This document shows positions 643-27,166 of a stretch of 36,650 nt of DNA, piece after piece. The notes beneath the pieces were generated by a model. That model had not been told where the DNA came from and ran no database searches. It saw only the letters and a program-made list of their open reading frames with translations. The position numbers and the translations under genes are program-made. Numbering within the stretch: position 1 is the stretch's first letter; each line of letters begins with the position of its first letter. This stretch comes from Opitutus sp. GAS368. Its GTDB lineage: Bacteria; Verrucomicrobiota; Verrucomicrobiia; Opitutales; Opitutaceae. Where the stretch lies: NCBI GenBank assembly GCA_945861645.1, contig CAMAVZ010000020.1, positions 1 through 36,650 on the forward strand, read 5' to 3'.

Positions 643-1527
643 ATGCTCAACACGGAAACCCCCAGCCCCCAGCACCCTAATCTTGATCAATATGCTTCCG
701 CCGATCTCGTGCGGGCTTTTACCGCTGATCAAGTGGTGGCGGCGAATGTCGTCCATGCCGCGGCTGATGCCTTGGCGCGGGCGGTTGATGCCGCGGTGCC
801 GCGCATCGCGGCCGGTGGTCGTTTAATTTATGTCGGTGCCGGCACGTCGGGGCGACTGGGTCTCTTAGACAGCGTGGAATTATTTCCGACCTTTGCTTGG
901 CCGAAGGATCGCGTCGCCGCTTTGTTGGCCGGTGGTCACGCCGCGTTGGGTTCCGCCGCGGAAGGCGCGGAGGATGATGAGGCTCAGGGCGGGGCGGATC
1001 TGCGCGGGCTGGCGGTTACGCCGCAAGATGTCGTTCTGCTGATCGCCGCTTCGGGCTATACTCCTTACGTGCTAGGCGCTCTGGCGGTCGCGAAAAGTGC
1101 GGGCGCGTTGACGATTGGCCTCGCCAATAATCCCCAGGCGCCCGTGGCCACCCAAGCGGACATCGGCATCACGCTCGATACGGGCAGTGAAACGATTGCG
1201 GGGAGCACGCGACTCAAAGCCGGTACCGCGCAGAAAATCGCGCTCAACACGCTTTCGAGTTCGATTATGGTTCGACTGAATAAGGTCTACGGTAACTTGA
1301 TGGTCGATGTATTACCGACCAATGCCAAATTGGTCCGGCGCGCGGTGGCCTTAACACGGCAAGCCGCGAACGCGGACGAGGCTGCGGCCCGCGCGGCGCT
1401 CGAGGCCTGCAGTTATCGCGTGAAGGTGGCGATCGTCATGCTTCGCCAGAAGCTCAGCGTAGCCGACGCCCAAGCTGCGCTCGACGCGGTCGACGGCAGC
1501 GTTCGCCGCGCGCTCCTGCGCCGTTGA
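643..1527 (+). CDS. murQ: N-acetylmuramic acid 6-phosphate etherase
   Basis: SIS-domain motifs GAGTSGRLGLLDSVE, EGAED, AASGYTPY, GSTRLKAGTAQK, GNLMVDV, NAKL; adjacent to anmK. Confidence 0.96.
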   Translation: MLNTETPSPQHPNLDQYASADLVRAFTADQVVAANVVHAAADALARAVDAAVPRIAAGGRLIYVGAGTSGRLGLLDSVELFPTFAWPKDRVAALLAGGHAALGSAAEGAEDDEAQGGADLRGLAVTPQDVVLLIAASGYTPYVLGALAVAKSAGALTIGLANNPQAPVATQADIGITLDTGSETIAGSTRLKAGTAQKIALNTLSSSIMVRLNKVYGNLMVDVLPTNAKLVRRAVALTRQAANADEAAARAALEACSYRVKVAIVMLRQKLSVADAQAALDAVDGSVRRALLRR

Positions 1528-1535
1528 ATCAGGGC

Positions 1536-8200: not shown

Positions 8201-9208
8201 ATGAGTAGCAGCATTCGTTGCCATATTCTTGGTTTTGTTCTCCTCGGCTTGTTGGGCCTGACGGGTTGCCAAACGCACCAACCCGGAACGTCGCTCGCCC
8301 GCACCGGCGATGAGATTGTGGTGGCCGGACAATTGTTTCATACGGGGACCCGCGTGATTACTTGGATGGATCCGCATGGTTATGATGCTTACCGCGTGGA
8401 GCGTCGGTTCAGTCCGCTGGCGAGCAGCGACTGGGAGAAGACGAAGGTGGAAGCCAAGGAGGTCACAACGCCCAACCGTTACAGCCTGCGCGGAAATTCG
8501 CTGGCCCCCGCCGAGCTTGAGCGCCTGCGCGGTGGCGGTTGGGATCTGCCCGCCTTGCAGCGCGTGGTAGATCAATTTGTAATCCATTATGATGTCTGCG
8601 GCCTCAGCAAGGTGTGCTTCAATGTGCTGCATGATCACCGCGGTCTCAGCGTTCATTTCATGCTCGATCTCGATGGCACCATTTATCAAACCCTCGATCT
8701 GAAAGAGCGCGCGCGTCACGCCACTATTTCCAACGATCGTTCCATCGGCATCGAGATTGCCAACATGGGCGCCTATGCACCCGGTGACACCAAGACGCTC
8801 GACGAATGGTATCAGCGGGATGCCCAAGGGCAGCCTTACATCAAAATCCCGGCGCGGCTCGGTGATCCCATGATCTACACCAAAAATTTTGTGGGACGCC
8901 CCGCTCGGGCTGTGCCGGTGCGAGGGGTCGTGCAGGGGACGGAGCTCGTGCAGTATGATTTTACGCCAGAACAATACGCCGCGCTGATCAAACTCACGGC
9001 GACGCTCGCAAAAATTTTCCCGAAAATTACCCTCGATTATCCTCGTGACCACCGTGGTCAGCTGGTCCCGCATAAATTAACTGACGCCGAGCTGGCCCGC
9101 TATCACGGCGTGCTAGGTCATTATCATATTCAGACGAATAAAACTGACCCAGGTCCGGCGTTGCAGTGGGATAAATTAATTGACGGGGCGCGTCAGTTGG
9201 CGCGCTGA
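8201..9208 (+). CDS. N-acetylmuramoyl-L-alanine amidase (Amidase_2, AmiD/AmpD-like), lipoprotein
   Basis: Lipobox LTGC; VIHY, SVHF, ARHA, SIGIEI and LGHYHIQTNKTDPG match the Zn-amidase motifs. Confidence 0.88.
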   Translation: MSSSIRCHILGFVLLGLLGLTGCQTHQPGTSLARTGDEIVVAGQLFHTGTRVITWMDPHGYDAYRVERRFSPLASSDWEKTKVEAKEVTTPNRYSLRGNSLAPAELERLRGGGWDLPALQRVVDQFVIHYDVCGLSKVCFNVLHDHRGLSVHFMLDLDGTIYQTLDLKERARHATISNDRSIGIEIANMGAYAPGDTKTLDEWYQRDAQGQPYIKIPARLGDPMIYTKNFVGRPARAVPVRGVVQGTELVQYDFTPEQYAALIKLTATLAKIFPKITLDYPRDHRGQLVPHKLTDAELARYHGVLGHYHIQTNKTDPGPALQWDKLIDGARQLAR

Positions 9209-9273: not shown

Positions 9274-10317
9274 TTAGACGCACGGGGCCATTTTTTGTTT
9301 GAGCGCCATGACGCGTGCACAAGCGGCGGCGATTCGCTCGGGGGAGAGGCGCCCGGATTCGACGGCGCGGCTAATGATGGTCGCGGCTTTTTCGGCGATG
9401 CGCGGATCGTAACTCGAATTATTGCCCAAGCAGAGCACATCGATCCCCGCTTCCAGCGCTAGCGGGATGGCTTGCTCGAGACCGTAATGGCTAGCAATCG
9501 CCTTCATCTCCAAGTCATCGCTGATAATCACGCCTTGGAAGCCCAGTCGCTCCCGGAGTACGCCGGTTTGCACGGCTCGCGAAAGGGTGGCCGGGTAGGT
9601 TGGATCGAGGTGACGATTAATCACGTGGGCGCTCATGATGGCATCGCATCGCCCCGCGGCGATCAGTTGCTGAAACGGGATGAGTTCGCGCTCATGCCAG
9701 GTGGCCGTAACATCGACGAGGCCGAGATGGGTGTCACCAGTAGCGCTGCCGTGTCCGGGAAAATGTTTCGCGCAAGTCAGCACACGGTGGGCGCGGTGAG
9801 CTTCGACGAATTCAGCCGCGTGGCGGGCAACGACCGCTGGATCGCCTGAAAAACTCCGACCCTTGCCCTTGATGATGGGGTTATCAGGACGAGCATCGAG
9901 ATCAACCACCGGAGCCAAGTTGAGGTTGAAGCCCAACGCGGCCAGATTTTGGGCGATGCGCTCTGCGTGGCGGTAGGTTTCCGTTGGTTGATTCAGTTGG
10001 CCTAGCTCCTCGTGTGAGCTGCTGGCGGGGAATCCATACTCAGGCTTGAGCCGATTGACGCGCCCGCCCTCCTGATCAACCGCGATGAGCAAGGGGTGAG
10101 CGGCCTGGGCTTGGAGATAGGTGATCAGCGCGCGAACTTGTTGGGGTGACTCAATATTGCGGCGGCGCAGGCTGGGCTCTGCCATTTCCTGATCAAATAA
10201 AATGACCCCGCCAATGTGTTGTTCGCGAATCGCGCGCTCCACTAAACCGCACTCCGTCGGCGTGCAGCCGCGGAAACCGACGAGCAGGAGTTGGCCAATT
10301 TGTTCGCGTAGTGTCAT
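9274..10317 (-). CDS. nagZ: GH3 beta-N-acetylglucosaminidase
   Basis: DQEGGRV, KHFPGHGSATGDTH (NagZ signature), ISDDLEM nucleophile. Start set at ATG 10317 (MTLREQIGQ) to avoid overlap with the epimerase; no signal peptide. Confidence 0.93.
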   Translation of the reverse strand: MTLREQIGQLLLVGFRGCTPTECGLVERAIREQHIGGVILFDQEMAEPSLRRRNIESPQQVRALITYLQAQAAHPLLIAVDQEGGRVNRLKPEYGFPASSSHEELGQLNQPTETYRHAERIAQNLAALGFNLNLAPVVDLDARPDNPIIKGKGRSFSGDPAVVARHAAEFVEAHRAHRVLTCAKHFPGHGSATGDTHLGLVDVTATWHERELIPFQQLIAAGRCDAIMSAHVINRHLDPTYPATLSRAVQTGVLRERLGFQGVIISDDLEMKAIASHYGLEQAIPLALEAGIDVLCLGNNSSYDPRIAEKAATIISRAVESGRLSPERIAAACARVMALKQKMAPCV

Positions 10318-10342
10318 GAAAAAATTGTGACCGGCGGGAGGC

Positions 10343-11356
10343 TCAGCGTTTCGTGAGGCCGAGCCCGGGGGCCTCGGTCGGGATAATTTTCCCCTCGACC
10401 AACTGCGCGCCGTTAAAAAGATCATTTTTTATCAGCAGCGCCCCATCAAGGTCGACCCAGTCGGCTAAGGGCGAAAGTTGGGCGGCGGCGGAGATCGCGC
10501 AGGAGGTTTCGGTCATGCAGCCGAGCATCACTTTCAGATTTAGCTGGCGGGCGAGGGTGATCATCTGGTGCGCCTCGTGGAGGCCGGTGCATTTCATGAG
10601 CTTGATATTAATACCGTCAAATACGCCGCGCGCGGCGGGCACATCAATTAAGCGCTGCACGCTTTCGTCCGCCATCAAAGGGAGCGGGCTACGTTCGCGC
10701 AACCAGGCAGTGTCATCGATTTGCTCTTTGGGCATGGGTTGTTCGATGAACAAAACTCCCTGCGTGGCCAGCCACTCGCTCATGCGCAGCGCGTCCTCGC
10801 GGTCGCGCCAGCCTTGGTTGGCATCGACGGTGAGGGGCTGGTCGGTCACTTGGCGAATCGTGGTGATCAGTTCGCGATCCGTGTCGCGGCCTAATTTTAC
10901 TTTCAGGATTTTATAGGGCGCGGCGGCGAGCGTCTTCTGCCGCACCACCGCTGGGGTATCGATGCTAATGGTGAAAGAAGTGGCGGGGATGCGGGCCAAA
11001 TCGAGGCCCCAATGACGGTGCCATGAAGTGTTTAATTTTTTTCCGACCCAATCATGTAAGGCTAAATCTAGGGCGGCTTTCGCCGCGGGATTACCGGGAG
11101 CCAACGCCTCAACTTGCGCGCCGATGGCCGTGATTTGTAACAGGTCGGGGAAGGCCGCGGGATCAACTAATTTTAAAAAGGCGGCGGCACTGGCCGGGGT
11201 CTCCCCAAGATACGGCGGCATCGCGGCCTCACCGTAGCCGATGAGGCCCTCGTGCTCCAGTTCGACCATCAAGGCGGGGGTCGTGGTGCGTGAACTCGTC
11301 GCGAGGGTGAAGGGATGGGCGAGTTCGAGCGTGTAGGGATAAAAGCGGAGATGCAT
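10343..11356 (-). CDS. L-Ala-D/L-Glu dipeptide epimerase (enolase superfamily, YcjG/YkfB-like)
   Basis: GYGEA, KVK, VDAN, EQP, ADES, KLMK, GCM and the DLD motif of dipeptide epimerases. Confidence 0.9.
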   Translation of the reverse strand: MHLRFYPYTLELAHPFTLATSSRTTTPALMVELEHEGLIGYGEAAMPPYLGETPASAAAFLKLVDPAAFPDLLQITAIGAQVEALAPGNPAAKAALDLALHDWVGKKLNTSWHRHWGLDLARIPATSFTISIDTPAVVRQKTLAAAPYKILKVKLGRDTDRELITTIRQVTDQPLTVDANQGWRDREDALRMSEWLATQGVLFIEQPMPKEQIDDTAWLRERSPLPLMADESVQRLIDVPAARGVFDGINIKLMKCTGLHEAHQMITLARQLNLKVMLGCMTETSCAISAAAQLSPLADWVDLDGALLIKNDLFNGAQLVEGKIIPTEAPGLGLTKR

Positions 11357-13700: not shown

Positions 13701-13714
13701 CCCCGAACTCACCC

Positions 13715-14312: not shown

Positions 14313-14328
14313 ATCTCTGCCGCTCGCG

Positions 14329-15670: not shown

Positions 15671-17521
15671 ATGTCGAAGGGTTTCGCTTCCAACCGTCTC
15701 AGCCTGCTCGCGATCGGCGTCATTGCTTGCTTCGTCAGCGTCGGCGTGCGATTGGTTTTTTTACACGTAGTGGATCGCGACGAGTTATTGCGCTTTGTGG
15801 ACAAAGCGCGCCGCCAGATCGTCGTCGAGCAAGCCCGCCGCGGCACGATTCTTGATACGCGAGGAAACTTGCTGGCAACCTCTCGCTCCGAAATCACCGT
15901 CGCTGTTGATCCTTGGTCGTTGCAAGAATACCTCGAGATAGAAAAAAATCCCAGCAAGCGCGCGCGCAAGAGCGCCGCGGAAAAAATCAAGCGGGGGCAA
16001 TTGGCCGCTTTGCTGGATCTGCCGGTGGCCGACGTCGAGCAAGCTTTTGTGCCGATGATGCGGCCGATCGATCCGCTGAAAGCTCAGCGTGATGGCAAGG
16101 TTGATGGCGTGACCAAGGATCGTTGGGTAAAATTGCGGGAAGCTTTGCCCGCGAGCGTCTATGATAAAATCGAGGCATTGGCGGTCCGCGGGATTACGCA
16201 TAATCGAGTTTATCGGCGAGTATACCCGGGCGATGGCCTCGCGGCGCACCTGATCGGTTACTTAAATAAAGAGGGCACACCGGTGAGTGGGGCGGAGCAT
16301 CATTTTAATCTCTATCTCAAAGGGCAGGATGGGTGGATTGAATCAGAAAAAGATGGGGCGCGGCGTGAACTCGCCCAATTTCGCTCGCGCGAGGTGCCCG
16401 TCGCCAACGGCAACGACGTCGTGCTGACCATCGACTCCGTGGTGCAGCACATCATCGAAGAAGAATTAAAAACCATCGCCGCTAAATTTCAGCCACATTT
16501 TGCCACGATCATCGCCAGCGATCCGATGACGGGTGCGATTCTCGGCCTGGCGAACTACCCGAGTTTCGATTTAAATCATTACAGTAAGGCGCCGCTGGAG
16601 GCGCAGCGTAATTATGCGATTACGGACCTGATTGAGCCGGGTTCCACCTTTAAGATTGTGGCGGCGGGGGCGGCGTTAAATGAAGGTTTAGTTACCGCGC
16701 GCACAACGTTCGACTGTAGCAATGCGACGATCGACTATAAAGGCCGCACCTTAAAATTGCCGAGGGAAGATGAATTGTTTGGCCGTTTGAGTGTGGCTGA
16801 TATTGTGGCGCATTCGAGTAATCGCGGAGCGGCGCAACTGGCGATGCTCATGGGCGAACAGCGTTTTTACGATTATGTCCGCGCGTATGGTTTTGGTGAA
16901 GCGACGGGCTTGGGGCTTGGGGGTGAGGTGCGCGGACAGCTGGCTTCGCCCGCCAAATGGGACGGTCTAACGATCACGCGCATGCCGATGGGTCATGCGG
17001 TGGCCGCCACCCCGTTGCAAATCCACATGGCAATGAGCGCCGTGGCGAACGGCGGCGTGCTTTTGCGCCCGCAGATCATCAAAGAAATTAAGGATCCGAA
17101 GGGAAATATTGTGCGCACCTTTACCGCCGAAAAACGGGGGCAAGTGCTCAAGCCCAGCACGGCGGCGCAATTAGCCCAGTTGCTCACGGGCGTCGTGCGC
17201 GAGGGCACCGCGAAGGGCTTTGATATTCCCGGTTTTGAAATCGCCGGAAAAACGGGGACGACTCAAAAAATTATCGGCGGCAAATACAGTACGAAGCATC
17301 ACGTCGCCTCCTTCGTGGGATTTTTCCCGGCGAGTCGGCCCGAGATTGTTTTATCGGTGATTGTTGATGATGCAGTCGTCGCTGGCGGTACGGCCTACGG
17401 ACGCGTAGTGGCGGCGCCCGCGTTCCACCACATTGCCGAGCAACTCATCCAGTATCTGGATATCAAGCCAGGGCTGCCGACGAATCGCACTTTTCTCGCG
17501 GCGCAAGGAGGTTTCCCATGA
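15671..17521 (+). CDS. ftsI: Class B penicillin-binding protein (septal transpeptidase)
   Basis: N-terminal TM; RGTILD; RVYP; SxxK (EPGSTFK), SxN (SSN) and KTG (GKTGT). Confidence 0.93.
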   Translation: MSKGFASNRLSLLAIGVIACFVSVGVRLVFLHVVDRDELLRFVDKARRQIVVEQARRGTILDTRGNLLATSRSEITVAVDPWSLQEYLEIEKNPSKRARKSAAEKIKRGQLAALLDLPVADVEQAFVPMMRPIDPLKAQRDGKVDGVTKDRWVKLREALPASVYDKIEALAVRGITHNRVYRRVYPGDGLAAHLIGYLNKEGTPVSGAEHHFNLYLKGQDGWIESEKDGARRELAQFRSREVPVANGNDVVLTIDSVVQHIIEEELKTIAAKFQPHFATIIASDPMTGAILGLANYPSFDLNHYSKAPLEAQRNYAITDLIEPGSTFKIVAAGAALNEGLVTARTTFDCSNATIDYKGRTLKLPREDELFGRLSVADIVAHSSNRGAAQLAMLMGEQRFYDYVRAYGFGEATGLGLGGEVRGQLASPAKWDGLTITRMPMGHAVAATPLQIHMAMSAVANGGVLLRPQIIKEIKDPKGNIVRTFTAEKRGQVLKPSTAAQLAQLLTGVVREGTAKGFDIPGFEIAGKTGTTQKIIGGKYSTKHHVASFVGFFPASRPEIVLSVIVDDAVVAGGTAYGRVVAAPAFHHIAEQLIQYLDIKPGLPTNRTFLAAQGGFP

Positions 17522-19110
17522 TTGGTTATCTCACGCCTAACTATCCGTTAGTGGCGGCTTTTCGGGCGCAACTGGTCGTGCGGCCCCGGGTAAAGCATCG
17601 GCTGACCACGGGACTCTTCAAATCGGCGCCAAATTTAGCGGACTATTTTCCGGCCGATGAAATCCTCGCGCGCCAAGGCGATTTAGATCGTCCCATTTCG
17701 GGTCTCGCGAGCGACAGTCGTCGGGTGCTGGCCGGCAATGTGTTTTTTGCGCTGCCGGGGCATCGAGCAGACGGTAATTCTTTTATCGACCAAGCGATCA
17801 GTCGCGGGGCCGTCGCCATTGTCGCGGAGAAAATTCCGAGCGGAATGGCGGCGCGCGTGACTTATATTCAGGTGGCTGATGTGCGGTGGACCCTCGCGAA
17901 AGCGGCGCAGCGCTTTAATCATTTTCCGGATCGCTCGCTGGAGGTGCTCGGGGTCACGGGTACGAATGGTAAGACCACGGTCGCGCATCTCATTAAGCAT
18001 TTATTGGCGACAACGACCCAGCGGGTTGGCCTGGTGGGGACGATCAACTACGATCTCGGGCATCGGGTGGTGCCCGCGTATCAGACGACGCCAGAGTCTT
18101 TAGAATTGTATGGTCTCTTGGCGCAGATGCGTGAGGCCGGTTGCCGCCAAGCGGTGGTGGAAGTCAGTTCGCATGGCCTCGATCAACAGCGCGTGGGCGG
18201 TCTGCAGTTCGGGGTGGCGGTCTTTACTAATTTTACGGCGGACCATCTTGATTATCACCGGACGAACGCGGCTTATTTTAGTGCGAAGAGACGATTTTTT
18301 AATGGTGAGAACGGGCCTCTCCCGAAAGTAGCGGTGGTTAATATCGATGACGCGGGCGGTCGGGAATTGGCGGCGGCGCTCCCCGCCGCGGTCCGTCTTA
18401 TCAGTTTTGGGGAGTCCGCGACTGCGCTCGTGCGAGCGGAGCAAGTGCAGGTGAGTGCGCACGGCACCGCCTTTCGCTTGCTTTGGCCCGAGGGAAGCAT
18501 CGACGTAGCAAGTCCGCTGCTCGGTCGTTATAATGTCAGTAATTTAGTCGCGGCGTTTGCGGCTTGTTATGCGCTGGGTCGTGATCCGGCGGTCGTGGCC
18601 GTGCGGCTAAAGAATTTTACCGTGGTGCCGGGTCGTTTGGAGCGAATTACCGGTGGGTCGGGAGCGCAGGTCTTCGTCGACTATGCTCATACCCCAGCGG
18701 CCATGCGGGCTTCGTTAAGTTTGTTGCGGGCGCTGACGCCAGGGCGTCTCTTGGTCGTCTATGGTTGTGGCGGCCAGCGTGACCGATCCCAACGGGCGCC
18801 GCTCACCAAAATTGTGCAGGAGATTGCGGATCAGGTTTGGGTGACCGCTGATAATCCCCGCGCGGAGCCGCTGGCCGATATTTTTGCTGACCAGCAGGCG
18901 GGGGTGATAGCGGCGGAGCGGATCGCTTTTGTGCCGGATCGGCGGGAAGCGATTCGGCAGGCGTTGGCCGCCGCGCGCGTCGGTGATGGCGTGCTCATCG
19001 CGGGGAAGGGCCACGAAATTTACCAGAAATTAGCCGATACGATTGTCCCTTTTGATGATCGGCAAGTGGCGCGGGAGTTACTCGTGCCGACGACACGGCG
19101 GCTGACTTAA
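17518..19110 (+). CDS. murE: UDP-MurNAc-L-Ala-D-Glu:meso-DAP ligase
   Basis: GVTGTNGKTT, EVSSH, DHLDYH, VDYAHTP, DNPR (mDAP-type motif), AGKGHE. SD AAGGAGGT at 17505 with ATGA overlap. Confidence 0.95.
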   Translation: MIGYLTPNYPLVAAFRAQLVVRPRVKHRLTTGLFKSAPNLADYFPADEILARQGDLDRPISGLASDSRRVLAGNVFFALPGHRADGNSFIDQAISRGAVAIVAEKIPSGMAARVTYIQVADVRWTLAKAAQRFNHFPDRSLEVLGVTGTNGKTTVAHLIKHLLATTTQRVGLVGTINYDLGHRVVPAYQTTPESLELYGLLAQMREAGCRQAVVEVSSHGLDQQRVGGLQFGVAVFTNFTADHLDYHRTNAAYFSAKRRFFNGENGPLPKVAVVNIDDAGGRELAAALPAAVRLISFGESATALVRAEQVQVSAHGTAFRLLWPEGSIDVASPLLGRYNVSNLVAAFAACYALGRDPAVVAVRLKNFTVVPGRLERITGGSGAQVFVDYAHTPAAMRASLSLLRALTPGRLLVVYGCGGQRDRSQRAPLTKIVQEIADQVWVTADNPRAEPLADIFADQQAGVIAAERIAFVPDRREAIRQALAAARVGDGVLIAGKGHEIYQKLADTIVPFDDRQVARELLVPTTRRLT

Positions 19111-19118
19111 TTACCCCG

Positions 19119-20495
19119 ATGCCCACTTTTGCCGCAGAAAAAATGGCGACTTGGACCGGTGGTCGCTGGCTGGGTTCACCCGCGAGCCCGCTCAGCGGCT
19201 TTACGGCCGATACGCGGACGCTGGTTGCAGGGCAGGCGTTTGTCGCCTTGAAAACAGCCCAGCGCGACGGACATGACTTTCTCGCGGCGGCGGCCGCCCG
19301 CGGTGCCGTAGCGGCCTTCGTTAGTCACGCGGTGTCCGGTAGTGGCTTAGCGCAATTAGTGGTGCCGGATCCATTGCGGGCGCTGCAACGCATCGCGCGG
19401 GAACATCGGCGAGAATTTAACGGTACGGTCATTGGAGTCACGGGCAGTGTGGGTAAGACTTCGACTAAAGATCTGCTGGGGATTTTACTGGGTGGGGCGA
19501 CTCACGTGCTGACCACCGAGGGGAATTTAAACAATCATCTCGGCGTGCCCTTGACGTTAACCAAGCTCGATACGACGCGGCAGGCATACGCGGTGCTTGA
19601 AGCGGGGATCAGTGGCCCAGGCGAAATGGCGCTATTGGCTGAAATGATCGAACCTGATCATAGTCTGCTCACGCTCGTGGCGCCGGCGCACTTGGCTGGG
19701 CTCGGTTCACTCGCCGGGGTGGCGCAGGAGAAGGCCTTATTATTGGCCGCCACGCGCGGGGGTGGGCTGAAAGTATTTCCGGCCAGCGCCGGTCAGTTTG
19801 AAGTTTTGCGCAGGTTAGTTAACGCCCTCGTGTTGGTGCCGGAAAATGAAAATTATTCCGCGGGGAGCGGCCGCAGCTTAAAATTTAAAGTAACCCAGTC
19901 GCCCAGCAAGACGGAGGTGACTTTGGGTGGTCAACGGCACTTTCGGTTGCCCCGAGTTTCTCGTGGGATGGCTGCAAACGCGGCACTCGCGCTGGCTTTA
20001 GCGGGCGAACTCGGAGTGACGGACAGCAACTTGCAGTGGCGGATCGCGAATTGGTTACCCTCAAAGTGGCGCGGAGAGTTGCAGCAGTTCGGTCGCGCCC
20101 AAGTATACTGTGATTTTTATAATGCAAATCCGGCCTCGATGCTGGATGCGCTTGAAGCGTTTCAAGGCAAGGTCGGGGCAAATCTCCCTCGCCTGTATGT
20201 GCTCGGGTGTATGGAGGAACTCGGGTCGGGGGCGGGCGAGTATCATCAGCAAGTCGGTCGGCAGATCCATTTACGGCCGGATGATTATTTATTTGTGATC
20301 GGTGGGTCGGCGGCGGCTTTACGGGAAGGTTTATTAGAAAATGGCAATGCGGCCGATCAGATTGCCGTGATTACTGATTTGCCGCCGGTGCGCGCGCGGC
20401 TGGCAGATTTTTCCGGAGCAGTTTTTTTGAAAGGCAGTCGTCGGTACCAACTGGAAACTGTATTGGCGGATACCGCGGTCAGCGCGACGCATTAA
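19119..20495 (+). CDS. murF: UDP-MurNAc-tripeptide:D-Ala-D-Ala ligase
   Basis: DGHDF, GVTGSVGKTSTKD, GNLNNHLGVPLTL, YNANPASM, LKGSR. Confidence 0.95.
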   Translation: MPTFAAEKMATWTGGRWLGSPASPLSGFTADTRTLVAGQAFVALKTAQRDGHDFLAAAAARGAVAAFVSHAVSGSGLAQLVVPDPLRALQRIAREHRREFNGTVIGVTGSVGKTSTKDLLGILLGGATHVLTTEGNLNNHLGVPLTLTKLDTTRQAYAVLEAGISGPGEMALLAEMIEPDHSLLTLVAPAHLAGLGSLAGVAQEKALLLAATRGGGLKVFPASAGQFEVLRRLVNALVLVPENENYSAGSGRSLKFKVTQSPSKTEVTLGGQRHFRLPRVSRGMAANAALALALAGELGVTDSNLQWRIANWLPSKWRGELQQFGRAQVYCDFYNANPASMLDALEAFQGKVGANLPRLYVLGCMEELGSGAGEYHQQVGRQIHLRPDDYLFVIGGSAAALREGLLENGNAADQIAVITDLPPVRARLADFSGAVFLKGSRRYQLETVLADTAVSATH

Positions 20496-20496
20496 A

Positions 20497-20625
20497 ATGG
20501 CATTTATTATCCAAAAATTAAAAATCGGTGAGGGCGAATGCCTAACGCCGCAGCGCGTGCGTAGCGGTGAACGTGCCGCGGGCGCTCGCGCAGGATTAAT
20601 CGTCACGGAGGAGTCGCATGCTTAG
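20497..20625 (+). CDS. Putative 42-aa peptide bridging murF and mraY
   Basis: ATG 1 nt after the murF stop: MAFIIQKLKIGEGECLTPQRVRSGERAAGARAGLIVTEESHA; its TAG overlaps the first codons of mraY (ATGCTTAG). Confidence 0.4.
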   Translation: MAFIIQKLKIGEGECLTPQRVRSGERAAGARAGLIVTEESHA

Positions 20626-21733
20626 TAAGCTATCAGCTTACGGCGATTGGTTCGGCCCGTTGCGATTGTTGCATTATAATAGTGTGCGGACCATTGGCGC
20701 GGCGATTACCGCACTCGTGATTGGTTTCATCATTGGCCCTTGGTTGATTCGCCGTTTTCGGGAATTGAAATTTGGCCACGGCTACATCGACGAGCGCACG
20801 GGCGCGTTAGGCGCCACGTATTTCGATAAATGCCACACGCCGACCATGGGCGGGTTAATTATATTTTTCTCGGTATTTTTCAGTAGTGTGCTCTGGGCAG
20901 AATCGAATATCTGGGTGTTCGTCGCCCTCTTAGTCTATACACTCCTCACCATTCCCGGTTGGCGAGATGACTACTTAAAGGTGGTGCACAAAAATAATGA
21001 CGGCCTTAAATCGTGGGAGAAGATCGCTTGGCAGTCCGCCACGACTGTTCTCGCGCTGGGGATTTTACTCTGGCACCCGCTCAGCGCCGGCAAGATTCGA
21101 GAACTGTGGGTGCCATTTGTAAAGACGGCCGTGATCCAATATATGCCGTGGTGGTTACTGCTCATGTTAATTTATCTGTGGATTGTTGGCTTCAGCAACG
21201 CGATCAACCTCACGGATGGTTTAGACGGACTCGCCGTCGGTTGCACCATCACGGTGGCCCTCGTTTTTGGCATGATGGCGTACGTGGCGGGGCGGGTTGA
21301 TTTCTCCGGGTATTTGTTAATTAGCCATGTGGCGGGCGCGGGGGAGTTGACGGTGGTTTGTGGCGCGCTCATTGGCGCCTGCATGGCATTTCTCTGGTAT
21401 AATTCTCATCCGGCGGAAGTTTTCATGGGCGATACGGGTTCGCTGGCTCTCGGTGGGCTGATTGGGGTGATGGCCTTCATGATTCATCAGCCAGTTACCC
21501 TCCTTTTGGTGGGGGGCGTATTCGTGCTCGAAGCCGTTTCAGTGATTTTGCAAGTAGGTTGGTTTAAGTTTACCAAGCGCCGCTCCGGCGTGGGCCAACG
21601 CCTCTTCTTGATGGCGCCCATTCATCATCATTTCCAAAAAAAGGGCTGGCCGGAAAGCAAGGTGGTCTTGCGTTTTTGGGTGCTCTCCCTCGGGTGTGCG
21701 CTGGCCGGTCTGGCCACGCTAAAACTTCGTTAA
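20618..21733 (+). CDS. mraY: Phospho-MurNAc-pentapeptide transferase
   Basis: TPTMGG, DDY, NAINLTDGLDGL, FMGDTGS, MAPIHHHF; SD GGAGG upstream. Confidence 0.97.
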   Translation: MLSKLSAYGDWFGPLRLLHYNSVRTIGAAITALVIGFIIGPWLIRRFRELKFGHGYIDERTGALGATYFDKCHTPTMGGLIIFFSVFFSSVLWAESNIWVFVALLVYTLLTIPGWRDDYLKVVHKNNDGLKSWEKIAWQSATTVLALGILLWHPLSAGKIRELWVPFVKTAVIQYMPWWLLLMLIYLWIVGFSNAINLTDGLDGLAVGCTITVALVFGMMAYVAGRVDFSGYLLISHVAGAGELTVVCGALIGACMAFLWYNSHPAEVFMGDTGSLALGGLIGVMAFMIHQPVTLLLVGGVFVLEAVSVILQVGWFKFTKRRSGVGQRLFLMAPIHHHFQKKGWPESKVVLRFWVLSLGCALAGLATLKLR

Positions 21734-21743
21734 CTAATCATTT

Positions 21744-21929
21744 ATGCCCATCGAATATAATTTTGAAAATACGCCTAATTTTCGGGTGCTGACTCGTTCG
21801 AGTTTGGTGCTGTTGCGCCAGCCCATCGTGCGATCCCTGGCTAAATTGCGGCGACTGCGTCTGGGGCAGGCCATTATTCCGGAAGGTCCGTTGTTGCGGA
21901 CCGCTAAATGTTTTAGGGGCGCCCGATAA
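21744..21929 (+). CDS. 61-aa basic hypothetical ORF at the usual murD position
   Basis: ATG 10 nt after the mraY stop; Arg/Leu-rich; no recognisable domain. Confidence 0.35.
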   Translation: MPIEYNFENTPNFRVLTRSSLVLLRQPIVRSLAKLRRLRLGQAIIPEGPLLRTAKCFRGAR

Positions 21930-22029
21930 CCCGCACTGCGGCCGCCGACGGCATTACCTTGTTCAAAAGCGCTGAATAACCTATATTTTTAGATAGCAAA
22001 ATAACCATCCTGCCTCACATATTCTACTT

Positions 22030-22890
22030 ATGAAAATCCTCCAAATCTTCGGAGCAGTTATCGCGGTGCACTTCCTCGCGTTCATCTTCATTTTTGCCAG
22101 TCCCGGTTGTCAGACTGGTCCGCGTAATATTCCAACGCCCGACGCCACCGCGCCGGTTGCCCACTCGGCCGCTCCGCCCGCTGAGCTCAGCGCGAACGGC
22201 GCGACGCCATTAATCTATCCCCCCGCGCTGAGTGCAGGTCATGCGACGCCGACCCGCCCAGGTTCACCGGCCGCCGCCGCCTTAGAGCCCGTTAAATCCT
22301 CAGCCGAGGTAGCGCCCGTTTCGACCTACACGGTGGGGAAGGGCGACAGCTTGTGGAGCATTGCGAAGAAAAATAATCTCACCGTCACCGAACTGGCCAA
22401 GGTCAATAATCTGAGCAGCGGTACGGCCCTCCAGCCTGGGAAGAAATTAATTGTTCCCGGTAAAGTTGGCGGCGCGCCAAAGGATCTCTCGACGGCGGCC
22501 GCTCCCGCAAAAATTGCCGCAGACAAGCCAGCGGCTGTGGTGCCGCGCGGAGATGCGGTGAAGCATACCGTGCAGCCCGGAGAAAGCCTCGGCGTCATCG
22601 CGCGCAAATATCAAGTATCTACCGGCGAACTCGCCGCCGCTAATAGCATCACTGATCCCTCTAAAGTTCGCGTAGGCCAACAGCTCGTTATTCCTGGCAT
22701 CAAGGCGGTCGGCGCGAAGAGCGCTGGCACCGCCGCCGCTACCCCCGTGCCCGCGCTCAACACGCCCCGGTTCGAACTGACCGTCCCAAGCCCTGGACAA
22801 GATCTTGATGCTGGCTTGAAGGGTGCGGGCACCGAGGTGCCAACGATCAAGGTGGCAACGCCTTCGGTTGAACAGCCGCCGAAGAAATAA
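22030..22890 (+). CDS. Membrane-anchored protein with two LysM peptidoglycan-binding domains
   Basis: N-terminal hydrophobic segment ending SPGC; LysM repeats YTVGKGDSLWSIAKK...LQPGKKLIVP and HTVQPGESLGVIARKY...VRVGQQLVIP; Pro/Ala-rich linkers. Confidence 0.9.
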   Translation: MKILQIFGAVIAVHFLAFIFIFASPGCQTGPRNIPTPDATAPVAHSAAPPAELSANGATPLIYPPALSAGHATPTRPGSPAAAALEPVKSSAEVAPVSTYTVGKGDSLWSIAKKNNLTVTELAKVNNLSSGTALQPGKKLIVPGKVGGAPKDLSTAAAPAKIAADKPAAVVPRGDAVKHTVQPGESLGVIARKYQVSTGELAAANSITDPSKVRVGQQLVIPGIKAVGAKSAGTAAATPVPALNTPRFELTVPSPGQDLDAGLKGAGTEVPTIKVATPSVEQPPKK

Positions 22891-22902
22891 GCCATTCTCC
22901 TG

Positions 22903-24060
22903 GTGAGTTCGCCGAGCGCTGTACCCCGCCGACCTCTTACGATCACCCCCGCGAGCGTCATCGTCGTCTGCGTCGTGGCGCTGGTGTCGATCGGTCTGGT
23001 CGTGCTGTTCAGTGCGAGCTCGCCGATTAAGGGCGGGCCTTACGCCTACCTGTATAAGCAATTTATTTTTCTCGCCGTGGCGATTGCGGCAGGGTGGGTC
23101 GTGGCGATTGTCGATCTCGAGCAATTGCGCAAATTTGCCTGGGTGGTGGGAGTTCTCGCGCTAGTCGCCTTGTTGTTCGTCTTGATTCCCGGCATCGGGA
23201 TTAAAGTAAATGGAGCCCGCCGCTGGATCGGCTTTGGGGGCGTGCGCTTGCAGGTCTCCGAATTTGCCAAGCTAGCGATGGTGTTTTCTCTCGCGCATTA
23301 CTTAGCGCTCAATCAGAGCAAACTCCATGATTTACTGCGGGGTTTTATTATCCCGCTCGGCTGGATTGGATTATTTTCTGGGTTAATTATTTTGGAACCA
23401 GATTTTGGCGCCGCTTTTCTGATCGGCACGATTGGGGTAGTACTCCTTTTTTTAGCGGGCGCCCGTTTGAAGTATTTGCTCCCCGCTATTGGCTCATTGT
23501 TGGTCCTCTTCGCGCTGCTGGTATTATTTAATCCGCTGCGGCTGCAGCGCGTGCTTTCCTTTCTTGATCCCGAGGCCAATCGGCAAGGGACCGGCTACCA
23601 ACCTTGGCAGGCCATGTTAGCGTTTGCGGCTGGCGGCGTGGATGGCGTCGGACTCGGCAATGGGCGCCAACAAAATGCATTTTTGCCCGAAGCGCATACC
23701 GATTATATTTTCGCGATTATGGGGGAGGAGATGGGGCTGATTTTCACCTTAATCGTCGTCATCCTTTTCGTCACGATTTTCGTCGCCGGTTTGCTGCATG
23801 TGCGGCGCGCGCCTAATCTTTTTCAGTTTCTCCTCGTGACGGGCGCTATTCTGCTGATTTGTCTGCAAGCCATCATCAATCTCGGCGTGGTCACCAGTCT
23901 GTTGCCTTCGAAGGGGATGGCGTTGCCGTTTATTAGCGCGGGAGGTTCTAATCTTCTGCTCATGGGTTTGCTGGTTGGCGTGATTATTAATTCCGCTCGC
24001 ACGTGGGAACGGCCGACGCCGCTGGTCCGCCGCCGCTCGCTGACGGAGGTCGTCGCATGA
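22903..24060 (+). CDS. ftsW: SEDS-family peptidoglycan glycosyltransferase
   Basis: NGARRWI, QVSEFAK, EPDFG, LPEAHTDYIF, EEMG, LPFISAGGS; GTG start. Confidence 0.95.
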   Translation: MSSPSAVPRRPLTITPASVIVVCVVALVSIGLVVLFSASSPIKGGPYAYLYKQFIFLAVAIAAGWVVAIVDLEQLRKFAWVVGVLALVALLFVLIPGIGIKVNGARRWIGFGGVRLQVSEFAKLAMVFSLAHYLALNQSKLHDLLRGFIIPLGWIGLFSGLIILEPDFGAAFLIGTIGVVLLFLAGARLKYLLPAIGSLLVLFALLVLFNPLRLQRVLSFLDPEANRQGTGYQPWQAMLAFAAGGVDGVGLGNGRQQNAFLPEAHTDYIFAIMGEEMGLIFTLIVVILFVTIFVAGLLHVRRAPNLFQFLLVTGAILLICLQAIINLGVVTSLLPSKGMALPFISAGGSNLLLMGLLVGVIINSARTWERPTPLVRRRSLTEVVA

Positions 24061-24061
24061 G
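24045..24061 (+). repeat. 17-bp direct repeat, copy 1 (SD plus stop/start junction, ftsW/murG)
   Basis: GGAGGTCGTCGCATGAG, identical to 25193-25209. Confidence 0.9.
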
Positions 24062-25208
24062 TGCCGTTGGCGTTTATGCGCGCCGCTTTGTCATCGCTTG
24101 TGGTGGCACAGGTGGGCACCTCACGCCGGGCATTGCCTTGGCGGCAGCGCTGCTGGCGCGGGGCCATGGTGTCACGCTTTTCATCAGTCAGAAAAAAGTA
24201 GATGCGCGCCTCGTGGCGCACTACGCGCAGCTGGCCGTCGAGCGGGTGCCAAGTGCTCCTTTCAGCTGGGGGCCGCGCGGGTTGCTGCGTTTTTATGCCG
24301 AACAGCTGAAGGGGTTATTATTTAGTCTGCGCTTCATTTGCGCCTATCAACCGGACGTTATTATTGGTTTTGGGGGCTTCACCAGTGCCGCCGTGGTGCT
24401 GGCCGGTTGGCTGCGGGGTATCCCCGTCGCTTTGCATGAAGCCAACCGTATTCCTGGTCGAGCGATCCGCCTCCTCGCTTGGGGGGCGCAACGGCTTTAT
24501 TTACCTCCGGGAGTGGCTTTGCCCGGTTGGCGGGGTCGGGGGGTGCGCTCCACTGGCTTGCCGGTGCGCGCAGATATTGTGCGGCAAGCCCCAGCGGTGG
24601 CACGCGCCCAGCTCGGTGTAGATCCTACCCAAAAATTGCTCGTGCTGCTCGGAGGAAGTCAGGGCTCCAGTAATCTTAATCAATGGGCCGAAGATAATTG
24701 GGCGGCACTGGCTTTGGCCGGCATCCAGTTGTACTGTGTCACGGGGTTGGGCAAGGGTCAGACGGGCGAGCGGTCGCAAGTGAACCATGACGGCGTCGTG
24801 GTTCGCGCATGGTTTGAGGCCTTTTCTGATCGGGTGGGCGTCTTGCTTTCCGCCGCTGATCTCGTGGTCAGTCGCGCGGGCGCGGGGACTTTAGCGGAAT
24901 TGGTGCGCTGCGTGACGCCAGCGATTTTACTGCCTTACCCCCAGGCGGCCGATAATCATCAGTGGGCGAATGCCACCTATTTTGTACAACAGGGCGGCGG
25001 GTTGGTCATGGCGGAGTCGGCGCTGCCGGCTTTGCGGGCGGAAGTGCTGCGCGTGCTGGCCGCTGACGCGTTGCTCCAGCAATTCCGCACGCAGCTCCTC
25101 CGCCAGGCGCAGGACGATGGTCTCGCCACCATGGTACCTGATCTGGAGCTGCTCGCCGGCGGTTCCCCCGCCGGGCGCTGGCGCAAATCTGAGGAGGTCG
25201 TCGCATGA
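24057..25208 (+). CDS. murG: Lipid II-forming GlcNAc transferase
   Basis: GGTGGH, GFGGF, HEAN, GGSQG, RAGAGTLAEL, HQWANA. Start at ATG 24057 (ATGA overlap, GGAGG SD). Confidence 0.96.
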   Translation: MSAVGVYARRFVIACGGTGGHLTPGIALAAALLARGHGVTLFISQKKVDARLVAHYAQLAVERVPSAPFSWGPRGLLRFYAEQLKGLLFSLRFICAYQPDVIIGFGGFTSAAVVLAGWLRGIPVALHEANRIPGRAIRLLAWGAQRLYLPPGVALPGWRGRGVRSTGLPVRADIVRQAPAVARAQLGVDPTQKLLVLLGGSQGSSNLNQWAEDNWAALALAGIQLYCVTGLGKGQTGERSQVNHDGVVVRAWFEAFSDRVGVLLSAADLVVSRAGAGTLAELVRCVTPAILLPYPQAADNHQWANATYFVQQGGGLVMAESALPALRAEVLRVLAADALLQQFRTQLLRQAQDDGLATMVPDLELLAGGSPAGRWRKSEEVVA

Positions 25209-25209
25209 G
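25193..25209 (+). repeat. 17-bp direct repeat, copy 2 (SD plus stop/start junction, murG/murB)
   Basis: GGAGGTCGTCGCATGAG, identical to 24045-24061. Confidence 0.9.
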
Positions 25210-26176
25210 CACGGCTAAAAGAAATACGCTGCGCCCCGCGCCAACTTGGGAGGATTTTTTGCGCGCGGTGCGCCGCGGTCTGCGTCCGGCGACCAAATTG
25301 CTGGAGTATGAACTGCTCGGCGCTAAGACTACGATGCGGGTGGGCGGCCCTGCGCGGGTTTATGCGGAGCCAGCGGACCTTGAGGATTTACGCCTCTTGT
25401 TGCGCCAAGCGAAGGGGTTGGGCTTGCCCGTTTTAATGCTGGGTCGCGGGTCGAATTTAATCATTCCTGATGCTGGAGTGGAGGGGGTGGTGATCAGTCT
25501 GGCGCATCCCGATTGGCAGAAATTTACGATTCAGCCCGATGGTCGGATCTGGGTTGGGGCGGGGTTACGTTTAAAAAATTTATGCGGTTTAGCAACGAAG
25601 GCGGGTTTAGCGGGCTTTGAATTTCTGGAAGGAATCCCCGGTTCGGTGGGGGGGGCCTTGCGCATGAATGCGGGGGCGATGGGCGGGTGGATGTTTGACG
25701 TCGTGGAGGAAGTCCAGTTGGTGACACCGCCGGGTGAACTCCAGGTGCTTAAAAAAGCGGCTTTGCACGTAGATTATCGGCATTGTGCCGAATTGCAGGA
25801 GGCCATTGCGCTCGGGGCTTACTTGCAGGCGCCCGCGGCCGCCGCCGCCACCACGATCCGAGGACAAATTGAGACCTATCAAAAAAAGCGGGTAGAGTCT
25901 CAGCCGCGGGAGCCCAGTGCGGGCTGTATTTTTAAAAATCCCTCAGAGGGGTCCGCGGGTCAGCTCATCGATGCCGTGGGGTTGAAAGGCGAGCGGGTGG
26001 GCGACGCCGAGGTTTCGGCGGTGCATGCCAACTTTATTATTAATCGCGGGTCTGCGACGAGTGCGGACATCATTGAACTGATCAAAATAATCCGGGCTCG
26101 GGTAAGCCGCGCGCGGGGGATCGAGCTTGAGCCGGAAGTAATGCTTTACGGCCAAGCTTGGCGAGATGTGCTCTGA
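25205..26176 (+). CDS. murB: UDP-N-acetylenolpyruvoylglucosamine reductase (stand-alone, no MurC part)
   Basis: TTMRVGGPA, GRGSNL, GIPGSVGGALRMNAGA, SAGCIFKNP, HANFIIN, LEPEV. Confidence 0.96.
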   Translation: MSTAKRNTLRPAPTWEDFLRAVRRGLRPATKLLEYELLGAKTTMRVGGPARVYAEPADLEDLRLLLRQAKGLGLPVLMLGRGSNLIIPDAGVEGVVISLAHPDWQKFTIQPDGRIWVGAGLRLKNLCGLATKAGLAGFEFLEGIPGSVGGALRMNAGAMGGWMFDVVEEVQLVTPPGELQVLKKAALHVDYRHCAELQEAIALGAYLQAPAAAAATTIRGQIETYQKKRVESQPREPSAGCIFKNPSEGSAGQLIDAVGLKGERVGDAEVSAVHANFIINRGSATSADIIELIKIIRARVSRARGIELEPEVMLYGQAWRDVL

Positions 26177-26233: not shown

Positions 26234-27166
26234 ATGTTTAAACCGATCATCGCAATTTTAGCCGGGGGCACTTCGCCCGAGCGGGAAGTTTCGCTCGGCT
26301 CCGGCCGTGCGGCGGCGTTGGCGATGGCCTATACTTATCCGACGCAATTTTTCTTGGTGGGAGCGGATGCTTTGCCGCTAGGGCTAGATCCGGCGCGCCA
26401 CATTGTTTGTTCGACCCTGCATGGAGTTTTTGGCGAGGACGGCGGCATGCAACGATTGCTCGAGGAGGCGGGAATGGCGTACGCGGGTTGTGATGCGCGC
26501 GGCAGTGAGCTGGCTTTTGATAAGTGGCGCACCCGGCAAGCGGTCTCCGCGCTGGGCGTATTAGTAGCCCCCGGGCGGCAATTTTTCGCCGCAGACAAGC
26601 CAACGGCGGCGGCGCTCTCGGCGGAGTTGGGTGAACAGGTGGTCCTCAAACCGAATCGACAGGGGAGCAGCGTGGGGTTGCAGATTGTGACTTCTAAGGT
26701 GGGGCTTGAGATCGCTTTAGCTGGGCTGCGGCAAGGCGAGTGGATTGCGGAGCGGCGTATTGTCGGGCGCGAATTTACCGTTGGGATTTTACGGGGCCGG
26801 GCGATGGGGGTAGTCGAAATCGTGCCGAAATCGGGCGTCTTTGACTACACCAGCAAATACACCAAGGGGCTGACGGAGTATTTTGCTCCGGCAAAAATTT
26901 CGGACGAGTTGGCCGCGAAAATCAGCGCAGCGGCCGAGACGGCTTTTGCGGCCTGCGGCGGCCGCGATTATGCGCGCATTGATTTTATGTTAGCGAATGA
27001 AGGGGATCTTTACCTGCTGGAAATTAACACGCTGCCGGGCATGAAGGACACGAGCCTGATGCCAATGAGCGCGCGTTGCGTGGGCTTGGATTTTATGGGA
27101 CTGTGTCGAGAACTAGTCGCCCCGGCGGTCGAACGCTTTCAACTCGCGCTAGTCGCTAAGCAATGA
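26234..27166 (+). CDS. ddl: D-alanine--D-alanine ligase
   Basis: GGTSPEREVSL, HGVFGEDG, GSSVG, DYTSKY, EINTLPG; GGAGG at 26221. Confidence 0.95.
   Translation: MFKPIIAILAGGTSPEREVSLGSGRAAALAMAYTYPTQFFLVGADALPLGLDPARHIVCSTLHGVFGEDGGMQRLLEEAGMAYAGCDARGSELAFDKWRTRQAVSALGVLVAPGRQFFAADKPTAAALSAELGEQVVLKPNRQGSSVGLQIVTSKVGLEIALAGLRQGEWIAERRIVGREFTVGILRGRAMGVVEIVPKSGVFDYTSKYTKGLTEYFAPAKISDELAAKISAAAETAFAACGGRDYARIDFMLANEGDLYLLEINTLPGMKDTSLMPMSARCVGLDFMGLCRELVAPAVERFQLALVAKQ

Follow-up and report, generated by a model that had tools for sequence, protein, structure and literature searches.

The peptidoglycan stem peptide starts with L-alanine (L-Ala) and D-glutamate (D-Glu), added by the ligases MurC and MurD, which textbooks count as essential and which serve as targets of antibiotics. 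Here we describe a stretch of DNA of 36,650 nucleotides from Opitutus sp. GAS368 (Verrucomicrobiota; Opitutales; Opitutaceae; contig CAMAVZ010000020.1 of assembly GCA_945861645.1), called the window throughout, in which the division and cell wall (dcw) gene cluster has lost both murD and murC and in which a dipeptide epimerase that accompanies this loss among relatives is encoded. The double loss of MurC and MurD is found in 17 further Opitutaceae genomes besides that of the window. The individual parts of the arrangement, namely the ligase Mpl, the L-Ala-D/L-Glu epimerase (AEE) and a MurC::MurB fusion, are known; the arrangement itself is, as far as we could find, new.

Several described systems resemble parts of this locus. 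The recycling of wall material in Escherichia coli by AmpG, AmpD, LdcA and Mpl has its counterparts here in an Mpl with the specific motifs, an AmpG-family permease, NagZ and MurQ, whereas LdcA was not found in five genomes searched and the amidase is a lipoprotein rather than a cytoplasmic AmpD. E. coli depends on MurC and MurD, which are essential, and can do without the side road through Mpl; here, with both of them gone, Mpl would have to bear the whole flux. The MurD2/MurL route of Xanthomonas (Feng et al.; PMC8788868) is described as an entry of D-Glu that needs neither MurI nor Dat, in which peptide-bound glutamate is epimerised in a racemase-less lineage. It differs from the present case, where no MurC- or MurD-type ligase is encoded and where epimerisation is proposed to act on the free dipeptide through an enzyme of the enolase superfamily. 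The enzymes YcjG, YkfB and BT1313 belong to the same group, and their described role is degradative (PMC4600125), whereas the role proposed here is the reverse, biosynthetic one. Finally, a MurC::MurB fusion has been described in Verrucomicrobia (Verrucomicrobium spinosum, PMC4803751; PMC12283558, PMC10214165) and is carried by relatives of the window's organism at the same dcw position, in contrast to the window itself, in which the ligase half has been excised and MurB corresponds to the C-terminal half of the fusion.

A 2025 survey describes the dcw genes of the Verrucomicrobiota as highly conserved and reports that V. spinosum cannot dispense with either murCB or murD (PMC12283558); Rast et al. 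report 'almost all' wall genes together with a joint MurB/MurC protein in three Opitutae (PMC5303756). No account of a selective loss of MurC and MurD came up in the literature searched; supplementary tables of these papers might list absences.

Deletion of murD and of the MurC domain

The window is contig C20 of a metagenome-assembled genome (MAG; G000) of 2.30 Mb in 116 contigs with a completeness of 84%, and because of this incompleteness the decisive evidence has to come from relatives. All long open reading frames (ORFs) of the window were scanned against the Pfam and NCBIfam profiles, which gave the dcw order mraZ, mraW, an ftsL-like gene, ftsI, murE, murF, mraY, a spacer of 296 bp, a LysM gene, ftsW, murG, murB, ddl, ftsQ, ftsA and ftsZ. 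A preliminary description of this DNA, made from its letters alone, had read the cluster as lacking murD and murC, with murE, murF, ddl and mraY intact; the profile scans bear out both statements, the coordinates included. On the forward strand, murE (17518..19110) and murF (19119..20495; intact, 458 aa) lie above the cut-offs of their families (TIGR01085, 487.2 bits versus 257.3, and TIGR01143, 304.5 bits versus 288.6, respectively), and mraY (20618..21733; 371 aa; Glycos_transf_4, E 7.9e-34; 80-84% identity to relatives) and ddl (26234..27166; Dala_Dala_lig_C, E 1.2e-40) are ordinary members of their Pfam families. MurA is present in the genome. MurE carries a DNPR motif at residue 445, which we take to be linked to specificity for meso-diaminopimelate, and is 83% identical between a MurC/MurD-less and a MurC/MurD-bearing relative, exceeded only by MraY among the eight dcw proteins compared.

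The genes that flank the two deletions follow on the same strand. A small arginine-rich ORF of 61 aa without a family (21744..21929) succeeds mraY, and the murD deletion site, as located by the spacer alignment, extends from its stop to the start of the LysM gene (21930..22029). The LysM gene (22030..22890; two LysM repeats, E 4.2e-32), in an NlpD/DipM-like position, is followed by ftsW (22903..24060; FTSW_RODA_SPOVE, E 1.1e-86) and by murG (24003..25208; Glyco_transf_28 and Glyco_tran_28_C; 198.1 bits on TIGR01133, below the cut-off of 250.25), whose listed GTG start overlaps ftsW, so that the true start of murG may lie further downstream. The start of murB (25205..26176; 323 aa; NF010480, 305.9 bits versus a cut-off of 259) overlaps the murG stop by 4 bp, and its product consists of the Pfam domains FAD_binding_4 and MurB_C with no Mur-ligase domain, in agreement with the earlier reading of murG as directly joined to a MurB without a MurC domain.

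Comparison of synteny with close relatives, as proposed in the preliminary description, makes both deletions evident. In the murD-keeping relatives G008 and G020 the order is mraY, murD (422 aa), LysM, ftsW, murG, the MurC::MurB fusion and ddl, the fusion having 788 aa in G020 and being read from a longer frame of 936 aa in G008, with the Pfam domains Mur_ligase, Mur_ligase_M and Mur_ligase_C ahead of the MurB domains. The MurB of the window, at 76% identity, corresponds to residues 480-788 in the G020 fusion and to residues 628-936 in the G008 frame, so that precisely the MurC half has been lost. The window, the MurD-less genome G024 and an isolate of Oleiharenicola lentus share the shortened order mraY, LysM, ftsW, murG, murB, ddl. 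A tblastn search (E<=10) of the window and the whole assembly with MurD and MurC::MurB of two relatives returned no remnant of murD or murC, only cross-matches to MurE, MurF and Mpl; pseudogene relics are thus present neither in the spacer between mraY and LysM nor ahead of murB.

The same spacer had been described as about 300 bp holding only a 61-aa ORF. Spacer and ORF are there, the ORF being a conserved gene and neither junk nor a relic of murD. An ORF of 60-61 aa occurs in all five genomes aligned, among them two that keep murD and have the ORF between mraY and murD, which rules it out as a murD relic or scar. In one genome pair, 27 synonymous versus 9 non-synonymous codon differences point to purifying selection, and no Pfam match was obtained at E<=1. 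The small ORF thus belongs to the regular dcw gene set of the Opitutaceae, with its place between mraY and murD (or LysM), and murD was cleanly excised downstream of it. Just 3' of its stop, an 8-nt inverted repeat (GCTGACAG ... CTGTCAGC, ~45 nt apart) lies in a segment conserved in three relatives (L027:13118-13734, L158:15085-15627 and L026:13868-14384; alignment A1, columns ~440-500) and mostly absent from the spacer of the window; it may represent a terminator or a regulatory hairpin.

Ligase inventory and distribution of the double loss

In the window's own genome four proteins match Mur_ligase_M, namely MurE and MurF in the window, Mpl on contig C94 (486 aa) and FolC on C79. The cut-offs for MurC (TIGR01082, 335.1 bits) and MurD (TIGR01087, 211.95 bits) are not reached, the best match to the former, of 230.6 bits, being the Mpl and the best match to the latter, of 73.4 bits, a cross-match of MurE. 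Equally, the best TIGR01082 matches in the nine other MurD-less genomes of the genus (E 1.9e-64 to 1.2e-68) are all Mpl, with 217.5-232 bits in the eight genomes with listed Mpl matches; fusion-bearing relatives score 272-332 bits. The MurD cut-off is exceeded in 28 of 41 relatives.

The distribution was followed in two samples. In the genus sample, which comprises 24 genomes and the window's own, 10 of 25 genomes are without both MurC and MurD, including ones that are 99-100% complete, and 15 possess both. A separate sample of the order consisted of 297 high-quality genomes of at least 90% completeness in which MurD was scored at E<=1e-30; it was detected in 261 of them, and 8 of the 30 genomes from the window's family (f1) were without it. 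Exactly four Mur_ligase_M proteins were present in each of five further MurD-less genomes of 99-100% completeness, one of them in a single contig, and exactly four were counted in the cultured O. lentus isolate, a Lacunisphaera MAG and a closed Opitutaceae chromosome of 8.9 Mb; a Horticoccus isolate has all six ligases. In every MurD-less genome tested for MurC or for the ligase inventory, MurC is missing as well and MurE and MurF are kept; for G293, G325 and one other of the eight f1 genomes without MurD in the order sample, the test covered MurD alone. Since MurC and MurD are lost together and MurE and MurF never, the bypassed step is exactly the addition of L-Ala plus D-Glu, and since MurE is strongly conserved, UDP-N-acetylmuramic acid (UDP-MurNAc)-dipeptide still has to be made. 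The Opitutaceae concerned are free-living freshwater and soil bacteria with one cultured species among them.

The suggestion that both ligases have been removed is thereby upheld, with none in the window's own genome and the same deletions in genomes of 99-100% completeness, in a one-contig genome and in an isolate. Among the fates that the preliminary description had considered for the two activities, relocation is rejected for the lineage, as whole-genome searches with hidden Markov models for MurC and MurD and with tblastn came back empty and the complete relatives are alike. Replacement by a MurC-MurD fusion or by MurD2 finds no fifth Mur_ligase_M protein in f1, and an Mpl-like ligase, the remaining suggestion of this kind, is indeed encoded on C94.

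In a second family, f17, murD and the MurC domain have been lost independently, with the same dcw layout (example genome G040: C16, L161; C4, L160:7290-8798; C64, L159:7245-9283; also G070, G094 and G146). All four MurC/MurD-less f17 genomes have an extra full-length MurE paralogue outside the dcw cluster (459 bits), which is missing from the one f17 genome with MurC and MurD.

Two observations from the same searches stand apart. A stand-alone canonical MurC of 515.8 bits on a short contig (G014:C199:1399-2721; L016) occurs in G014 besides the MurC::MurB fusion of that genome and may be due to contamination or transfer. In family f14, only 10 of 28 genomes pass the MurD threshold of E<=1e-30, and a 464-aa frame (G037:C1:185924-187144) with two weak MurD matches of 84 and 74 bits suggests that MurD has diverged strongly there and has not been lost.

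Mpl, the probable entry ligase

The Mpl candidate is encoded outside the window (G000:C94:1018-2478). Residues 3-480 of its 486 match the mpl model with 363.8 bits, below the equivalog cut-off of 388.7; mpl is its top family, murC trailing far behind with 231.0 bits, and the best PDB match is the structure of a Psychrobacter Mpl (3HN7, E 1.1e-82). The motifs described as specific for Mpl are (S/T)AFFDKRSK and, in the C-terminal domain, RR, F-A-H-H, EPRSNT and SNG (Das et al., PMC3060825). The C94 protein displays SAFFDKRSK at residue 167, KRR at 334, EPRSNT at 380 and TNG near the C-terminus, and at ~351-354 FGHH, with Gly in place of the Ala of F-A-H-H. On these features it is confidently assigned as a genuine Mpl and as the only remaining enzyme from a family known to acylate UDP-MurNAc. 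That Mpl is also the sole entry point into stem-peptide synthesis we consider probable.

For the Psychrobacter enzyme, rates of 260 per min with the tripeptide, 1.4 per min with 15 mM L-Ala-D-Glu and 0.7 per min with L-Ala have been reported, and a murC(ts) mutant was rescued by overexpression of E. coli mpl (PMC3060825). The activity that is needed thus exists as a weak side activity of known Mpl.

A quick tree of Mpl with 46 rows groups 17 MurD-less genomes into a clade (support 95) that also contains G020 and G046, the latter with MurD and without the epimerase, and leaves the MurD-less genomes G330 and G305 outside a clade (support 99) that takes in 13 MurD-bearing genomes too. If the Mpl tree follows the species tree, there would have been two or more losses of MurC and MurD, every one of them in an epimerase background.

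A dipeptide epimerase that tracks the loss

On the reverse strand of the window (10343..11356), a putative cytoplasmic epimerase of the AEE group is encoded, a protein of 337 aa with the Pfam domains MR_MLE_N and MR_MLE_C. A signal peptide is absent, the protein starting at residue 1 of its PDB relative; residues 1-336 align with residues 1-337 of the 338 residues of 3IJI/3IJL/3IJQ at 437 bits, followed at 143 bits by the E. coli AEE 1JPD. We take 3IJI to be the dipeptide epimerase of Bacteroides thetaiotaomicron. BT1313 has been characterised as an epimerase converting L-Ala-D-Glu to L-Ala-L-Glu (PMC4600125). The window epimerase is a candidate source of L-Ala-D-Glu.

With orthologues recognised by 65-97% identity, the epimerase was present in all 10 MurD-less and in 1 of 15 MurD-bearing genomes (G020) of the genus sample, and in the independent order sample in all 8 MurD-less and in 1 of 22 MurD-bearing genomes (G098) of f1. 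Over both samples, 18 of 18 MurD-less stand against 2 of 37 MurD-bearing Opitutaceae; one further MurD-bearing genome of the order sample has a homologue of only 37% identity. The contrast is seen inside two genera, and there is no f1 genome without both the epimerase and MurC/MurD. Epimerase and MurC/MurD occur together in G020, in G098 and in the Horticoccus isolate, which was found by way of its epimerase and is left out of the counts. A second, Thermotoga-type epimerase paralogue on contig C78 has the same pattern of co-occurrence. On the other hand, ampG is found in 23 of 24 genus relatives irrespective of their MurC/MurD status and the amidase is patchily distributed among MurD-bearing genomes, so that the loss is tracked by the epimerase and not by the salvage functions at large; the salvage locus as a whole was rejected as a correlate for the same reason.

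In a FastTree phylogeny of 81 sequences, the 22 Verrucomicrobiota copies all group with the window protein in a single clade (support 99), which is nested among sequences of Bacteroidota, Ignavibacteriota and Planctomycetota and one sequence of an Acidobacteriota. This placement in an unrooted tree fits a horizontal acquisition of the epimerase by the Opitutaceae.

Glutamate racemase (TIGR00067) was above cut-off in none of 41 genomes of the order, and MurI, for which a search had been advised, was thus not found. The broader family Asp_Glu_race (PF01177) had no match in three of five genomes (the window's own and the closed genomes G008 and G269); it matched weakly in G024, and the O. lentus isolate gave matches of 129 and 66.9 bits. 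A class-IV aminotransferase is common to the five genomes tested, the copies on C67 of the window's genome and in G008 scoring as IlvE (433 and 435 bits versus 363); a second Aminotran_4 match in the window's genome, on C111, has 135.2 bits and is unclassified. A recognisable glutamate racemase (41 genomes) or D-amino-acid transaminase (5 genomes) was not found even in members that keep MurD. In the MurD-less clade, epimerisation at the level of the dipeptide would supply D-Glu without glutamate racemase.

Salvage genes and a second peptide locus

Upstream of the dcw cluster, the window contains the salvage genes in the order murQ, GHL10 lipoprotein, ampG, sugar-acid dehydratase, sodium:solute symporter, Amidase_2 lipoprotein, nagZ, epimerase and SulP permease. 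On the forward strand, 643..3140 encodes MurQ, an N-acetylmuramic acid 6-phosphate etherase (NF003915, 349.6 bits versus 168), and the GHL10 protein (E 4.3e-64) with a lipobox-like N-terminus, and the AmpG-family muropeptide permease (3140..4426) reaches 183.7 bits on TIGR00901, below the cut-off of 350. The putative N-acetylmuramoyl-L-Ala amidase (8201..9208, forward strand; Amidase_2, E 3.9e-20) has an N-terminus ending in LTGC, a lipoprotein signal that predicts a periplasmic enzyme unlike AmpD. The NagZ-like GH3 beta-N-acetylhexosaminidase lies on the reverse strand (9274..10425; NF003740, 202.8 bits, just below the cut-off of 207). The preliminary description had placed a large salvage locus next to the dcw cluster; the locus is real in the window, and its adjacency is not conserved: the closed genome G269 has its epimerase at 2.90 Mb, and its murE is located at 0.31 Mb.

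A second locus on another contig (G000:C78:359-6129; L028) encodes a secreted 999-aa fusion of Amidohydro_3 with a PBP4-type DD-peptidase. The amidohydrolase part is D-Glu-deacylase-like, its nearest model being 'amidohydrolase family protein' (201 bits), and the fusion gene adjoins those of a symporter, of a LacI regulator and of the second paralogue of the dipeptide epimerase. Conservation of this locus extends to G024 and G020.

Proposed route and alternatives

We propose that in this Opitutaceae lineage, with murD and the MurC half deleted, the first two residues of the stem peptide would no longer be added singly. Mpl, as the sole and essential entry, would attach a preformed peptide already holding D-Glu, upon which MurE, MurF, MraY and MurG would proceed as usual. 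We infer that the substrate of Mpl in these organisms would be L-Ala-D-Glu; it would originate from the epimerase run 'backwards' in vivo on L-Ala-L-Glu, presumably imported or released by proteolysis, and in addition from salvaged wall fragments. A stem started from L-Ala-D-Glu had been considered in the preliminary description, and the epimerase co-occurrence makes it the best supported reading; of the possible substrate suppliers named there, AmpG and the amidase are not specific to MurC/MurD-less genomes. That Mpl is the sole entry and ligates L-Ala-D-Glu provided by epimerase or salvage is a reading in which our confidence stays slightly short of even. The more specific version is more doubtful: a de novo route without MurC, MurD and MurI, in which L-Ala-L-Glu would be epimerised by an epimerase of Bacteroidota-like derivation and ligated whole by Mpl, with Mpl and epimerase both essential, the organisms dependent on peptides, and at least two losses on an epimerase background.

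A number of findings weigh against this proposal. With respect to the epimerase, the protein stays below the NCBIfam cut-offs for AEE (NF011708, 160.4 versus 343 bits; NF041118, 127.5 versus 500), so that its substrate is assigned by way of the PDB relative, and its top NCBIfam match is DgcA, an N-acetyl-D-Glu racemase (211.3 bits, below the cut-off of 400). The co-occurrence counts are phylogenetically non-independent. The role described for such epimerases in other bacteria is catabolic, and as epimerase and C78 locus resemble a kit for the catabolism of wall peptides, the association could reflect lifestyle, the epimerase simply marking, as it may, bacteria that feed on wall peptides. Furthermore, the loss in f17 took place without an f1-type epimerase, which is therefore not a general requirement; the homologue there is DgcA beside DgcN, another enolase homologue has just 24% identity to the second epimerase, and f17 was rejected as a second, independent instance in which loss and epimerase are linked. 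An enzyme making L-Ala-L-Glu was not found with PF13535 (ATP-grasp_4), the single ATP-grasp family searched, its matches being Ddl and a few unannotated frames, none of them restricted to MurD-less genomes. Equally, neither LdcA (Peptidase_S66, PF02016) nor an NlpC/P60 (YkfC) peptidase for trimming salvaged peptides was found in any of five genomes, and recycling of the E. coli cytoplasmic type, characterised by LdcA and a cytoplasmic AmpD, is not what these genomes encode.

With respect to Mpl, the published rate of the one enzyme with L-Ala-D-Glu is ~0.5% of its rate with the tripeptide (PMC3060825). Mpl is 68-77% identical across the MurC/MurD-less and MurC/MurD-bearing groups, and every Mpl-specific residue is kept in both. 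Of 562 alignment columns, six separated the groups at first; with 19 more genomes only A386S, beside the EPRSNT loop, largely holds (18 of 20 MurD-less genomes), and Ser at this position is also found in the MurD-bearing genomes G046, G028 and G036. As no group-exclusive substitution remains after the wider sampling, a re-specialisation of Mpl was rejected.

The wall peptide could alternatively derive from salvage only, in which case the organisms would in effect be wall-peptide auxotrophs, the epimerase would be purely catabolic and MurE would be retained for a minor branch of dipeptide salvage or for another reason. That Mpl has kept all the residues to which the binding of tri- to pentapeptides has been ascribed (PMC3060825) agrees with this, as do the encoded AmpG, NagZ, periplasmic amidase and MurQ and the secreted D-Glu-deacylase-like/PBP4 fusion next to another dipeptide epimerase. 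However, net growth is impossible from recycling and a MurC/MurD-less isolate exists in pure culture; MurE has been kept in all MurD-less genomes examined and is no less conserved than in MurC/MurD-bearing relatives (83%), AmpG is equally common in the latter, and LdcA, which would turn tetrapeptide into tripeptide, was not found in any of the five genomes searched. We regard salvage as the only source as unlikely.

Similarly improbable is a non-homologous replacement, in which enzymes outside the Mur family, or a moonlighting FolC or MurE, would add L-Ala and/or D-Glu, or L-Glu with subsequent MurL-like epimerisation, and in which Mpl may stand in for MurC. An order without a recognisable source of D-Glu even where MurD is kept harbours, on this argument, a wall chemistry beyond the familiar one already; L-Ala is weakly used by the Mpl studied (PMC3060825), and the extra MurE paralogue gained in f17 indicates that other solutions evolve. 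Yet f1 has no extra Mur-family ligase, a distinctive ATP-grasp_4 protein or other candidate gene did not emerge, and the tight link with the epimerase is left unexplained.

Far less probable is a stem peptide that does not start with L-Ala-D-Glu, or a much reduced wall, that would make MurC and MurD needless. Organisms of subdivision 4 have been described as devoid of muramic acid or diaminopimelate, but the same source reports peptidoglycan in Lacunisphaera, a related genus (PMC5303756); MurA, MurB, MurE (of the DNPR type), MurF, Ddl, MraY, MurG, FtsW and FtsI are without exception intact and conserved, and MurE and MurF require UDP-MurNAc-dipeptide or -tripeptide. An artefact, with the genes located elsewhere or unassembled or the junctions misassembled, is hardly conceivable: the 116 contigs and 84% completeness of the window's MAG would allow it, but tblastn detected no remnants and the same architecture with four ligases recurs in a one-contig, 100% complete genome, in the closed 8.9-Mb chromosome, in the isolate and in more than 15 others.

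Implications

A free-living, culturable lineage that has lost exactly the MurC and MurD steps and retains all others of the pathway indicates that enzymes usually classed under 'recycling' can serve to rewire how the stem peptide is begun. If entry through Mpl with a preformed dipeptide is true, it would join MurI/Dat and MurD2/MurL as the third known route by which D-Glu reaches the wall, and Mpl would turn from an accessory into an essential enzyme. Resistance to inhibitors of MurC and MurD, or their bypass, through Mpl would then be evolutionarily accessible. Equally, the bacteria would depend on peptides or fragments of the wall as nutrients, which would be of relevance to the culturing of Verrucomicrobiota and could partly account for the need of the group for yeast extract or peptone. 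In a 2025 study of an isolate of the Oleiharenicola clade, yeast extract was supplied 'as a growth factor' whenever growth was tested (PMC12388122). As O. lentus, which lacks MurC and MurD, and close relatives that keep murC and murD are in culture, the question is directly testable.

Further features of the window

The dcw cluster begins with mraZ (13649-14167), mraW (14230-15243), the ftsL-like ORF (15253-15666) and ftsI (15671-17521), all identified by the Pfam/NCBIfam scans. None of the Rfam families matched in the window. Towards its end, an ORF of 215 aa on the forward strand (31716-32363) with a faint match to the MshEN domain (E 0.032) is located directly 5' of a type II/IV secretion ATPase (32367-34100).

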